64,000 bases of DNA. Origin: an uncultured Phycisphaerales bacterium (GTDB lineage Bacteria > Planctomycetota > Phycisphaerae > Tepidisphaerales > Tepidisphaeraceae). Both the position numbers and the translations under genes were made by a program. Location of the stretch: contig CAVWLP010000003.1 of the NCBI GenBank assembly GCA_963755915.1, positions 864,001-928,000 of the forward strand, read 5' to 3'. Of this stretch, positions 29,523 through 62,945 are shown one piece after another; position 1 is the stretch's first letter, and every line of letters begins with the position of its first letter. The notes under the pieces were generated by a model, which saw nothing but the letters and a program-made list of their open reading frames with translations, ran no database searches and was not told where the DNA came from.

Positions 29523-29751
29523 TTGTGTCGGGGAAACTGAGGACAGAACCCTCCATTTGACTCATGCGTCTTTTGCATTTCTTGGCACTCTTGGCGTCTT
29601 GAGCGAAGCGGGCGGTTATAAGATTTTTTAACCGCCAAGAAACTATGAAGCCGAGCCTTTCTCGGGACGTGAACGGGGTCAAAATGCCCCAAGTATGAAC
29701 GAGCGTACCGCGTAGGTCGCTCAAACGTCTTTTTTGAGAAAGGACTCGGCA

Positions 29752-30795
29752 ATGCGAATTCTCGCTTTGGACCTGGGAAAGAACAAGAGCGTTTTTGTGG
29801 ATTATGTCACCGGCGGTGGAGAAAGAACGTTCGGCAAGATCGGCACCAATGCCCACGAGGTGCAAAAACTACTCGAGCGGGTGCGTCCGGATCGACTGGT
29901 CATCGAGGCCGGTCCGGCGGCAGGATGGGTTTGTGATCTGGCGGAGCGGAACAATGTTCCCGTCCAGGTGGCCAATGGCAACGATGAACGCTGGCGCTGG
30001 AAGACGGTGAAGGAGAAGAGTGATCGTAAAGACGCGCTGAAGATGGCGGCGATGTCGGAGATGGATTCGCTGCCGACGGTGCACGTGCCCAAGGCATCGG
30101 TTCGGCAGTGGCGTTCATTGATTGAATACAGACACGGCCTGGTGGATCGCCGCACGGCGCTCAAGAACTCGATCCGATCAATCTACGAGCGGCAGGGTTT
30201 GTATTTGCCCTCGGCGACCAAGGCGTGGACGAAAGCGCGACTGGAGGAAATGAGGAAGGAAGCAGCGGCCGCATCGGCGGAAGATCTGTGGCTGTTTCAG
30301 ATCGGTTGTGAGGTGGCGCAACTGGAGCACCTGGAGAAGCAGATCGAAACTGTCGAAAGCAAGCTTCAGGAGTTGGGCCAGGCCAACAAAGCGGTGAAAC
30401 GATTGCAGGAGGTGCCCGGCGTTGGTCCGCGGCTGAGCGAGGCGGTGGCGGTGATCATTGATGATCCCAGGCGATTCAAGAATGCACGTCAGGTGGGATG
30501 TTACGTGGGTCTGACGCCGCGGCGCTGGCAGAGCGGCGACAGCGATCGCCAGGGGCGGATCAGCAAGGCAGGCAACGCGCTGCTGCGGGAGTTGCTGGTG
30601 GAGGTGGCGTGGCTGGGGGTTCATCGCAATACGTGGATGAAGGACGTGTACGAGAGGGTTCTACGTGACAGCGAGAAGCGCAAGAAGATCGCGATTGTTG
30701 CGGTAGCCAGGAGATTACTGGTGAAGCTGTGGGCGATGCTGCGGGACGGAACCCGATGGAGAGAACCCCAGCGATCGCTGACGGCGGCCACTTGA
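29752..30795 (+). CDS. IS110-family recombinase (DEDD)
   Basis: ALDLGK, VIEAG, KSDRKDA, VPGVG, GLTP...QSG, GRISKAGN, AVARR. Confidence 0.95.
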   Translation: MRILALDLGKNKSVFVDYVTGGGERTFGKIGTNAHEVQKLLERVRPDRLVIEAGPAAGWVCDLAERNNVPVQVANGNDERWRWKTVKEKSDRKDALKMAAMSEMDSLPTVHVPKASVRQWRSLIEYRHGLVDRRTALKNSIRSIYERQGLYLPSATKAWTKARLEEMRKEAAAASAEDLWLFQIGCEVAQLEHLEKQIETVESKLQELGQANKAVKRLQEVPGVGPRLSEAVAVIIDDPRRFKNARQVGCYVGLTPRRWQSGDSDRQGRISKAGNALLRELLVEVAWLGVHRNTWMKDVYERVLRDSEKRKKIAIVAVARRLLVKLWAMLRDGTRWREPQRSLTAAT

Positions 30796-30949
30796 AAATC
30801 GAAAAGGCGATGACTGTCCCGACAAGTCGGTACAGGCGATGGAGTATCTCCCCTCCGGAAGACACCGTGTCAGAAAGCCGTTGTCTTCTGTGCAGGGGAT
30901 TGAGTAGAGTTGAAGTGAAGTGGAATTGACGCGTTCGTGCAGGTTGAAT

Positions 30950-31100
30950 GAGCAAGGCCAGACCCCGGTTGGCGTCTTAAGCTTCAAAGCTTGCCGCTAA
31001 GAATAGGGCTGGCCATTTGTACAGTTGAATAGGCCCGCCGCCAGGCGAGAGCACTGAATAGAAGGCTCACCCAATCGACCGCATGAGCGATCAACGCCCC
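30950..31100 (+). ncRNA. Putative bridge/seek RNA of IS110 #1
   Basis: Stem-enclosed guides ttggcgtctt and ccgctaaga match the insertion target; atagaag matches the donor end. Boundaries approximate. Confidence 0.75.
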
Positions 31101-31211
31101 TTGACAAGGCTCGGCTCATAGAAGACGCCAAGAGCGCCAAGAATTCAGAAGCCATTCAACTCATTGGTTTTAAATCTCTGCGCTCTTTGCGGTGTCCAGC
31201 GCAGCGGGCGG

Positions 31212-35434: not shown

Positions 35435-35599
35435 GCGGCTTGATGGGAGTTGGGTTTTGGGAGAAAATTGGGGGGAGATTTTTATCGGTTATGGTTGTTG
35501 TGACGAGGTGGACGCGGTTACTCGAATATCCATGAAAGGCTTCCCCGATCAACAAAAAAATTCTCCTCGCGAAAAGCGGTTACTTCTTTTTCATTCCGA

Positions 35600-35800
35600 G
35601 ACCTCTTCGTCCGTCTGCCGGCTGGTGACTGGCCTCTCGGCGGTCCATATATCCATTCGTGCTGGCCGGGCCCGATCAACAGCGTTTGGCCGAGCGGCAC
35701 ATGATCTCATCCGGCGCGGGCGGCCCAATTATAACGTGGCCTCTCGAGCCTGAATTGCTTCGGGCTCATGGCCAATTCGAGCCAGGGCTGGCCCACTTCC
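35600..35800 (-). ncRNA. Putative bridge/seek RNA of IS110 #2 (overlaps the recombinase 3' end)
   Basis: Guides gctcgaat and cgttata flank an internal hairpin; atggatat matches the donor end. Boundaries approximate. Confidence 0.6.
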
Positions 35801-36928
35801 GGACGAGATCAGTTCCTTATGTCTTTTGCTTCCCGGTCTTGGGGGCGGCACCTCCTGATAATCCTGGTTGTTGTTCCACATTGAATAGACGATCCGACAT
35901 ATGCGGTTGGCGACGGTGATGTAGCCGCGACCGCGGTCCTGTTTGCCGTTGTTGGTACGGCGATTGAAAAGTTCTCGCAAAAAAGCGTCCCTTTGCACTG
36001 CCGAGTGGGCGGCCTGAATAAAGGCCCACTGAAGGGTAGTGCGACCGGCGTGACCAAGTCGGCGGCCGATGGGCTTGGCATCGCGATCTTCTCCGCTGTC
36101 GTCGGCCTGCGGCGCCAGCAGGCTGTATTGGAGCAGGCATCGACTGGAGGAGAAACGATCGATTCGGCCGATCTCGGCGACCAGCGTATATCCCAGCACG
36201 GTGGAGATGCCCGGCACGGTCATCAGGCGCTGGCCGATCTCCGATCGTTTCATGGTCGCGCGGAACCGGCGGGTGGCCCGTGCGATCAGGCGACGCAGAG
36301 AATCCAGCAGCATGAGATCTTCCTTGAGCGTCTGGCGTCCTGAGAGGCTCAGGGTCTTGTCCTCGGTGAGCAGCGACAGGAAACGCCGGCCCTGCACACC
36401 GAAGAGGTCGGTGAGCTCGCTGACGATTCCATGGCGGTGCAGCGTCGCGTGAATGCGATTTTTCAACTGCGTTTGAGCCTGAACGAGGGTCATCCGATGG
36501 CGCAGCAGCTCCCGCTGATCACGAATCTCGCGTGGGGCCAGCCAGACTTCCCACCAGCGCTTCATGATGCCTCGCTTAAATATCGGTTTTTCGTTCCAGA
36601 GTTCACTGAGCAGGTCGGCATCGACCTTGTTGCTCTTGGCGATCCCGCGTCCTTCCCGCCATGCCGCCACTTTGCGGCTCGAGGCCAGGTGGGGCTGCAT
36701 GTTCAAAATCTGCAACTCATCGCTGAGCCATCCCCAGCCAAATGTCGCTTCCAGGATCACCGGCGTGCCTCGCGGCCACTGAGCGATTCGCTCTCGAAGC
36801 TTTTGGCGATCCAGGTGATCCAGGCGTTCGCGAGCAATGACCTTCCCGGAAGCGTCGCGCAGACTGGCGGACGAGAACTTCCGATGGACGTCCAGCCCTA
36901 CCTGAACTACCTTGTCGTATAACTTCAT
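35729..36928 (-). CDS. IS110-family recombinase
   Basis: GLDVH, ILEAT, KSNKVDA, VPGI, DDSG, VANR; AAGGAG RBS. Confidence 0.93.
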   Translation of the reverse strand: MKLYDKVVQVGLDVHRKFSSASLRDASGKVIARERLDHLDRQKLRERIAQWPRGTPVILEATFGWGWLSDELQILNMQPHLASSRKVAAWREGRGIAKSNKVDADLLSELWNEKPIFKRGIMKRWWEVWLAPREIRDQRELLRHRMTLVQAQTQLKNRIHATLHRHGIVSELTDLFGVQGRRFLSLLTEDKTLSLSGRQTLKEDLMLLDSLRRLIARATRRFRATMKRSEIGQRLMTVPGISTVLGYTLVAEIGRIDRFSSSRCLLQYSLLAPQADDSGEDRDAKPIGRRLGHAGRTTLQWAFIQAAHSAVQRDAFLRELFNRRTNNGKQDRGRGYITVANRICRIVYSMWNNNQDYQEVPPPRPGSKRHKELISSGSGPALARIGHEPEAIQAREATL

Positions 36929-37001
36929 GGCTATCTCCTTGTGTGAATGACACCAAAACCGGAATGTTAACTTCCGGCAGGGAGATGGCCTTTCATGCGA
37001 T

Positions 37002-37109
37002 TATAAAACGCGGTTCCGCCGCGATAACACGTGGCTGCCCCGGTGACGTTCGGTGCGACCTTGAGGTGTTGGGCGGGAAAGCGCCGTGCAAGCACGGCGG
37101 CTACACGGG
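37002..37109. repeat. Repeat family D with terminal GTAG-type REP; copies at 44928-45029, 62777-62880 and 57734-57761; left part at 35477-35526
   Basis: Shared ggttccgc.gcg...tggct...ggtgacgtt and gggcgggaaagcgccgtgcaagcacggcggctacacggg (minus strand GTAGCCGCCGTGCTTGCACGGCG). Confidence 0.78.
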
Positions 37110-44838: not shown

Positions 44839-45092
44839 TGCGGGCTCCAGGGGTTGGGGAAAGTGGCACCTTAGACGGGAAGGTTCGGTCGATCAACTTT
44901 TTCTTTGCGAGCTTCGCTTATGCGAATGGGGTTCCGCGGCGATGGCACATGGCTGCTCCGGTGACGTTAGGGGCGGCTTTGACGTGTTGGGCGGGAAAGC
45001 GCCGTGCAAGCACGGCGGCTACACGGGGGAAAAGGGGAGATGCGATCGCCCTGCTTTTTCGCGATTGGACCCGATGCCCCAGGCACAAAACT

Positions 45093-62722: not shown

Positions 62723-62945
62723 GCCGGGAACAAAGTATAGGTTGAGGAGAGTTATTAACTAGGAGTCAAGAAGAAGATTTTATCGGTCACGGTTTTGGCA
62801 ACGAGAAGACGCGGTTACTCGTATAAAACAAGCGGTTCCGCCGCGGGAGCACATGGCTTGCCCTGGTGACGTTCGAAGTGGCCGTGAGGTGGGTAGCAGC
62901 AATGGGGAGTTAACAAAATCGATTGGGGGAGTATCTTGGTGGGTT

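Follow-up and report, generated by a model that had tools for sequence, protein, structure and literature searches.

The recombinase reading frame of a Phycisphaerales IS1111-type element runs into its predicted guide RNA

In a stretch of 64,000 nucleotides (nt) of DNA from an uncultured Phycisphaerales bacterium (assembly GCA_963755915.1, contig CAVWLP010000003.1, positions 864,001 to 928,000; the whole stretch is referred to as the window), an earlier note, made from the letters alone, had described an IS1111-type element on the minus strand whose target-guide loop lies inside the coding tail of the recombinase. Analysis of this 1475-bp element (35527..37001, minus strand) and of its relatives supports the IS1111-type assignment and confirms the anatomy claimed, while the term "dual coding" attached to it is too strong. 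The whole is best explained, with good confidence, as an active IS1111-type insertion sequence with a guide RNA at its 3′ end, into which the open reading frame (ORF) of the recombinase reads, leaving the protein with a run-on tail. Overlap between ORF and RNA is a clade-wide trait. The tail, in turn, is most likely a passenger peptide and not a second selected code.

Results

The recombinase ORF (35729..36928, minus strand) encodes 399 residues followed by a TAA stop codon; the folded part of the protein ends near residue 353, and a conserved P.R.G motif ends at residue 366. The predicted target-binding domain of the bridge/seekRNA comprises 110 nt (35702..35811, minus strand), 83 of which (35729-35811) are covered by the ORF. 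The target-binding loop, including the right one of its two guides, lies inside the last 17-27 codons (the earlier note had given about 25), and the stop codon indeed overlaps the left guide, as the TAA (35731-35729) consists of that guide's core dinucleotide TA and the next A.

The recombinase has 1064 database relatives at E ≤ 1e-30; among the 120 matches listed, most are 380-410 residues long, and the few named by source are from Tepidisphaeraceae and Humisphaera. For comparison at the DNA level, 130 loci were gathered, 50 from species genomes and 80 from metagenomes, with named records mostly from Planctomycetota, class Phycisphaerae, by their titles. When these loci and the window element were examined, 120 had a recombinase match starting in the first 12 residues of the query, and 86 of these also had both subterminal repeats, comprising 82 distinct sequences, 77 of them with an intact ORF. 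The RNA of this clade is not encoded in a non-coding end, the position expected of bridge RNAs and seekRNAs: the overlapping layout is present in 73-75 of the 77 intact relatives, and in 73 the ORF is read past the right guide. The stop codon lies in the inner hairpin of the RNA in 49 of them, in the left guide in 24 (18 of which use the same TAA as the window element), in the 5′ stems in two, and just before the RNA in another two.

The domain was delimited by a single-sequence fold and by a consensus fold of 77 sequences. In it, the stems P1, P2, and P3 lead to an internal loop and, beyond this, to hairpin P4; the outer stem P1 has 13 bp here (UGAUCUCGUCCGG with CCGGAUGAGAUCA in the single-sequence fold). 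An nhmmer profile made from the 3′ region of the element located the RNA motif in all 86 loci, each time on the 3′ side of where the conserved part of the protein ends; the consensus fold consists of four helices enclosing both guides. Of the cells in its 19 pairs, 98.2% are paired, and eight of the 19 pairs show compensatory changes; none of 500 shuffles was as good, and sliding the partner strand left at most 50% paired. The tggcc...ggcca hairpin inside a gggc/gccc-closed stem that had been read from the letters is present, and both folds agree on it: the inner hairpin P4 (35737..35774, minus strand) pairs TGGCC (35770-35774) with GGCCA (35737-35741) and varies in length and sequence among the relatives, and the loop is closed by GCCC (35785-35788) with GGGC (35723-35726). 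The domain thus has the structured internal loop of a bridge/seekRNA, with two sides matching the two target strands around the core, and its guides follow the IS1111 order, the segment complementary to the top strand coming first and that complementary to the bottom strand second. When the whole window was searched against Rfam at gathering thresholds, there was no match, and no bridge-RNA family reached threshold.

The target of the element is CGCGTTTTA-TA-TTCGAGC. The right target guide, GCTCGAAT (gctcgaat; 35775..35782, minus strand), complements the A of the core and TTCGAGC of the right flank, and it coincides with codons 383-385 (A-R-I). The complementarity that had been claimed for this guide is therefore real, but it is complete (8/8) only to attcgagC, the flank of three other copies in the genome; the copy studied here is flanked by attcgagT and matches at 7/8 positions. 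Throughout the family, the 5′ guide immediately precedes the inner hairpin, and its reverse complement gives the core followed by the right flank. Among the 78 loci with enough flank on both sides (77 distinct), the right guide has a mean of 7.53/9 matches; random re-pairing of guides with flanks gives 4.77 ± 0.14 (maximum over 2000 permutations, 5.22). At least 7/9 positions are complementary in 70 of the 77 distinct elements. In the subclade of the window element, the guide is offset by one base and pairs with the core A and seven flank bases; AT as an alternative core for this subclade was rejected, as the left junction it predicts is not observed. The closest full relative (L006/L035; 82.6% DNA identity) has a different palindromic target, and its guide GCTCGTAT and flank TACGAG show a matched change (A to T in the guide, T to A in the flank). 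The left target guide (35729..35736, minus strand) consists of CGTTATA (35730-35736) and a conserved A, with the TA at 35731-35730 matching the core. Its agreement with left flank and core, reported before as partial, is 5/7 in this element; family-wide, there are 3.43/7 flank matches versus 2.34 ± 0.11 after permutation (maximum 2.68, 2000 permutations, 77 distinct). As the match of the left guide is weak, 5/7 is typical, and targeting would be mainly by the right flank. The earlier note had proposed to align homologous elements and look for covariation between the 3′ codons and the target flanks; at the level of the RNA, both guides exceed all 2000 permutations.

What the guide does to the protein can be read from close relatives, the tails of which vary with it: ALARIGH here is ALTRIGH in L085 and ALHRIGH in L086 (target TGCGAT). 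The predicted guide, in other words, sets the tail residues of these relatives (ARI, TRI, HRI). The claim that retargeting would alter the C-terminal tail stands in this respect; it does not for the nearest natural retargeting, since the guide change between the window element and L006/L035 is synonymous in the ORF (cgA to cgT). "Dual coding" likewise stands insofar as a guide change alters tail residues in relatives, and is not supported insofar as it implies two selected messages, given the three reading frames, the scattered stops, and the predicted disorder. The RNA is entered in frame 2 by the ORFs of 51 of the 77 elements, in frame 0 by 17, and in frame 1 by nine, so that SSGNGPAL, SRPGTGQP, and LVRERTSP are the same RNA nucleotides read in three ways. 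As none of the three frames has a stop triplet in the conserved 5′ part of the RNA (read from the alignment), any ORF reaching the RNA must run on. The AlphaFold2 model (33-sequence alignment) places the last helix at residues 335-353, and residues 368-399 have a predicted local distance difference test score below 50 and no secondary structure.

A protein motif beginning with S-S-G-x-G-P-A-L could instead be what is selected in the tail, with the RNA structure being secondary. In keeping with this, the 33-protein alignment shows no variation at G377 and G379, and most of the 120 relatives listed display the motif. This explanation is nevertheless already contradicted and retains next to no probability: the same nucleotides are read in three frames across the relatives, compensatory base changes preserve the stems, the variable triplets follow the target flank and not the protein, and the region is predicted to be disordered.

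A pattern scan found no sigma-70-like promoter inside the element. The joined ends, by contrast, form a −35/−10 pair with the −10 (GATAAT) lying across the junction; it scores 9/12 here and at least 9/12 in 59 of 78 distinct end pairs, figures that are matches to the consensus only and have no control. The RNA of ISEc11 is thought to derive from a junction-promoter transcript, according to the text of Siddiquee et al (2024; PMC11187229). Together, the lack of an internal promoter in the scan, the putative junction promoter, and the agreement with ISEc11 indicate that recombinase mRNA and guide RNA are probably carried on one transcript.

Several observations weigh against the explanation preferred here. 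The linker between the P.R.G motif and the RNA is free of stops in frame in 66 of 68 elements versus 36 and 38 of 68 off frame; where it is at least 60 nt long, it is open in frame in 18 of 18 versus 4 and 3 of 18 off frame (nine elements without the P.R.G motif were left out of this count; linker lengths were 17 to 260 nt). As the linkers are rich in Lys, Arg, and Ser, their openness in frame points to selection either for translation reaching the RNA or for a basic, disordered tail, and passive run-on is insufficient alone. Differences between the tail and that of an 83% identical relative fall mostly on third codon positions (judged by eye, with no statistics). In the subclade of the window element, the one-base offset of the right guide leaves the core T unpaired, opposite a T. 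The counts of relatives are not independent, the permutations ignore phylogeny, and loci are distinct by exact sequence only. Finally, the only match among RNA libraries was to one metatranscriptome (6% of sampled words), in assembled contigs of a relative about 92% alike; with a similarity of about 90-95%, these contigs span 35527-35921 in one piece, plus other parts, and since they cannot show transcription, ends, or strand, no conclusion was drawn from them.

The openness of the linkers would also be expected if the overlap were functional, that is, if the stop codon inside the guide RNA were deliberately kept and coupled translation to guide production on a single transcript. Such coupling is conceivable in several ways. 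A translating ribosome would unfold the target-binding domain, so that each transcript would serve as mRNA or as folded guide, never both; excision of the guide would leave a stop-less mRNA and mark the protein for degradation; or the nascent recombinase would load onto the adjacent emerging RNA, resulting in cis preference. The persistence of the overlap in 73-75 of the 77 intact relatives despite linkers differing so widely in length speaks for this possibility, as does the probable sharing of a transcript by mRNA and RNA, no internal promoter having been found, and the poor yield of TnpEc11 without its RNA mentioned in the text of Siddiquee et al (2024; PMC11187229). Yet no selection is needed to account for the overlap when the 5′ part of the RNA is free of stops in every frame, 25-40 stop-free codons are expected by chance in GC-rich DNA (an estimate, assuming about 3% stops per codon), and the overlap is not obligatory, considering that two of the 77 relatives stop just before the RNA and two in the first stem. 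Open linkers, moreover, may reflect nothing more than the usefulness of a basic, disordered tail. A functional overlap is thus considered unlikely, though it is by far the most serious competitor of the passenger-peptide explanation.

The ends of the element are set by its flanks and by empty sites, and the extent given in the earlier note (35527-37001, minus strand) proved exact: the genome contains four copies that are 100% identical over precisely the same 1475 bases, the right end holding the shared core TA. All four copies are inserted in one repeat, as the earlier note had suggested for this one, and at the same TA (...ggcggaaccgcgttttaTA / element / ttcgag(c/t)...). At three other sites of the genome, the element-free 17-mer is intact with zero mismatches (exact empty sites), which indicates insertion without target duplication, with the TA being shared; besides these, there are about twenty diverged copies of the repeat. 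Occupied and empty sites together document site-specific insertion with a shared core dinucleotide and no target duplication, the behavior of an IS110-family member. The left flank (37002..37025, minus strand) is a repeat copy with the hairpin CGCGG-CGGAA-CCGCG and a T-tract ending in the core TA, terminator-like by pattern scan, and the TA used for insertion is directly 3′ of hairpin and T-tract. A related copy without insertion, expected near 62810-62840, is present at about 62810..62844 (minus strand); it is uninterrupted, carries a variant target, and reads ccgcttgttttaTAcgagtaaccgcg.

The left subterminal inverted repeat, CATGAAAGGC (36988..36997, minus strand), is 10 bp long and situated 4 nt inside the left end; the right one, GCCTTTCATG (35531..35540, minus strand), also has 10 bp, lies 4 nt from the end, and is followed by GA and the core TA. 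Both are kept in 86 related loci, and their length falls in the range of 7-17 bp for IS1111 elements. The right end is, again as in IS1111, longer than the left, with 202 nt past the stop codon and 73 nt ahead of the start codon.

The recombinase carries PF01548 (RuvC-like, E 7e-9) and PF02371 (Tnp domain, E 2e-13), both above the Pfam cut-off, and its residues 10-355 match the NCBIfam model NF033542 (IS110 family RNA-guided transposase) with 161.5 bits (cut-off 140). It is 27% identical to an IS4321-family transposase over residues 3-370, and the only solved relatives by sequence are the PDB chains 8wt6 and 9t56 (E about 1e-9). The conserved Ser-Gly pair is present: S278-G279 align with the S-G of IS621 in a significant HMMER stretch, with Ser at 278 in 117 and Gly at 279 in 120 of 121 family sequences. 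The DEDD tetrad is incomplete, as D13, E60, and D103 are kept in the clade and the third position is occupied by N100. This residue, encoded together with K98 and S99 at 36629..36637 (minus strand), stands opposite the Asp of K-S-D in another IS1111-type element of the window, designated element #1 (29626-31143, plus strand), in a BLASTP alignment (E 4e-12), and opposite D102 of IS621 in a weak HMMER stretch; the equivalence is one of sequence alignments only. The contrast between K-S-N and K-S-D drawn in the earlier note is correct, but K-S-N is not a peculiarity of this element, as 119 of 121 family proteins have Asn as the third DEDD residue, which makes it a clade signature. The longer motif K-S-N-x-x-D-A-D (residues 98-105; 36614-36637) is likewise clade-wide, with its extra Asp, D105, kept in 112 of 121.

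According to the text of Hiraizumi et al (2024; PMC11208158), the D102 residue of IS621 forms a bond to G242 in the Ser loop, and recombination is lost when D102 is mutated. This, together with a length of 399 residues where characterized IS1111 members have 330-350 (text of Siddiquee et al, 2024; PMC11187229), could suggest that an assembly or indel artefact produced the long ORF, or that the copy is dead because Asn replaces the third catalytic Asp. The probability of either is minute. The indel, which the earlier note had itself named as an objection, is excluded by four identical copies at distinct sites and by the same layout in nearly all intact relatives, so that the artefact is already contradicted; the 1064 database relatives, mostly of similar length among those listed, point the same way. 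Against a dead copy stand the clade-wide Asn and the fact that other genomes contain several copies with different left flanks (L039, L041, L067, and L071); besides, Asn might still make a D102-type hydrogen bond to G242. With Asn present throughout the clade, the other catalytic residues kept, and identical multi-copy elements here and in other genomes, K-S-N would seem to mark an active "DEND" variant and not a defect. In elements with evident recent activity, Asn can take the place of the third, "essential" Asp of DEDD.

Downstream of the target-binding domain, a second structured domain (35617..35701, minus strand) resembles a donor-binding loop and contains AATGGATAT (35649-35657), which equals the right end plus the core; the identity of atggatat (35649-35656) with the donor end, seen before, is thereby confirmed as one with the element's right end. 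The donor motif is conserved in all but one (L136) of the 78 distinct sequences listed. In seven relatives with a changed right end (CATGAATA in six, CATGAAAA in L070), the motif AATGGATA reads AATGAATA; this left-donor match covaries with the right end at one position, and the seven relatives may share a single origin. A right donor guide was looked for and not found. The candidate GATGAGATCA was rejected because the fold shows it to be the 3′ strand of stem P1.

The repeat family serving as target is ~100 nt long (gaacgtcacc...agcc..gtg...gcggcggaaccgcg-ttttatattcgag...ctcgtcac..aaccgtaaccgaaaata), includes the terminator-like hairpin, and has about 20 or more copies genome-wide; in the window, it is found at 37002-37060, 62780-62880, and about 44900-44990, always on the minus strand. 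The junctions of the element family have the form ...gTA / ATCc-CATGAAAGGC and GCCTTTCATG-GA-TA / flank, the flank often being the foot of a GC-rich hairpin, for example GGGTGGGC. L039, L041, L067, and L071, which belong to one genome, have the right flank GGGTCCGC in common, again a hairpin foot, and unrelated left flanks, indicating that targeting there is almost wholly by the right guide and gTA. In the metagenome loci L086 and L092, the dinucleotide at the right junction is CA and AA, respectively, and that at the left junction TA; this mismatch might be a record of recombination between unlike cores. The right flank of L094 resembles the second RNA domain of another copy (gatggaccgccgagaaggccagtca) and fits the right guide at 4/9 positions, and the locus may be a nested or rearranged pair. 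L022 (positions 1460-1640), from a genome of the same genus, has the same palindromic target as L035. Its left end and the 5′ half of its RNA domain are preserved, the ORF tail survives as a remnant, and a right repeat is missing over about 250 nt; it was rejected as a miniature RNA-only element, being an internally deleted, decayed copy.

Discussion

The following course of events would account for the layout. A DEDD/Ser recombinase would be aimed by a bridge/seekRNA encoded at the 3′ end of the element, with the 3′ side of the target-binding loop repeating a few bases of the left flank and the core TA. Insertion would take place without duplication at the TA just past the terminator-like hairpin of the genomic repeat. 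Recombinase message and guide RNA would be parts of a single transcript from the junction promoter, the guide RNA occupying the 3′ end. As no stop codon precedes the RNA, the ribosome would translate the folded part (to about residue 353), a short linker, and then 83 nt of the RNA domain, and would terminate inside the RNA at the TAA made up of the left guide's core TA and the next A. The RNA sequence would consequently determine the last 27 or so residues, including three set by the right guide, and the tail would be tolerated as a run-on peptide without a function of its own.

This arrangement has practical consequences. Bridge RNAs and seekRNAs have been described as products of non-coding ends, and pipelines search the sequence flanking the called coding sequence; the search described in the text of Durrant et al (2024; PMC11208160) included no more than 50 bp of 3′ coding sequence. 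In the present clade, which is large and by its record titles mostly from Planctomycetota, the called gene includes up to about 95 nt of the RNA, so that searches confined to the flanks would cut off the closing stems. Reprogramming the right guide in the native layout would also edit the protein tail, probably harmlessly. Should the overlap turn out to be regulatory, it would be a novel mechanism by which an RNA-guided mobile element balances protein versus guide: the stop codon within the guide would be a built-in control of dosage or cis loading, and the guide would also write three protein residues. No statement on an overlap of coding sequence and RNA was found in the text of Siddiquee et al (2024), Durrant et al (2024), the ISPpu9 paper, a 2026 Nature paper, or a 2026 review, the figures and supplements of which may show it.

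The closest characterized counterparts are the IS1111 elements ISEc11, ISPa11, and ISKpn4 with their seekRNAs, as depicted in the text of Siddiquee et al (2024; PMC11187229). They have in common with the present element a DEDD recombinase containing an S-G motif, inverted repeats in subterminal position, duplication-free insertion at a specific site that is often a folded repeat, an RNA encoded in the 3′ end of the element, and a segment complementary to the top strand located 5′ of that complementary to the bottom strand; that a promoter arises solely when the ends are joined is a further parallel, here a consensus match only. In contrast, the RNAs of these three elements map downstream of the tnp stop codon and are non-coding, whereas 83 of 110 nt are in the ORF here. 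The recombinase of the present element is about 50 residues longer than theirs, the third catalytic Asp is replaced by Asn, and the left guide is short (about 3-4 bases plus core).

With the bridge RNA of IS621, as presented in the texts of Durrant et al (2024; PMC11208160) and Hiraizumi et al (2024; PMC11208158), the RNA described here shares two internal loops, the second of which is putative here, and a target loop whose sides pair with different strands, core dinucleotide included, and the recombinases share a composite RuvC/Ser active site. Unlike here, the IS621 RNA is encoded in the 5′ non-coding end, the order of its guides is reversed, the subterminal repeats are very short, and D102 takes the position that is held by N100 in this clade.

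Element #1, although from the same genome and also of IS1111 type, with nine copies, subterminal repeats (CTATGAAGCCGAGCC and GGCTCGGCTCATAG; right flank ccaagagcgccaagaa), and a 3′ RNA region, differs in having an ORF of 347 residues with K-S-D; the two proteins are 23% identical. The first 10 nt of a guide-like 11-mer in element #1 (30969-30979) are complementary to its right junction (31122-31131). As this stretch lies 174 nt past the stop codon, the RNA region of element #1 is truly non-coding. An overlap of RNA and coding sequence as such has a parallel in the TnpB omega-RNA of the IS200/IS605 group, the scaffold of which overlaps the 3′ end of the gene for the guided protein on the same transcript. 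In that system, the protein is a nuclease instead of a recombinase, and the ORF does not include the guide proper; in the element described here, the guide itself is predicted to be translated.

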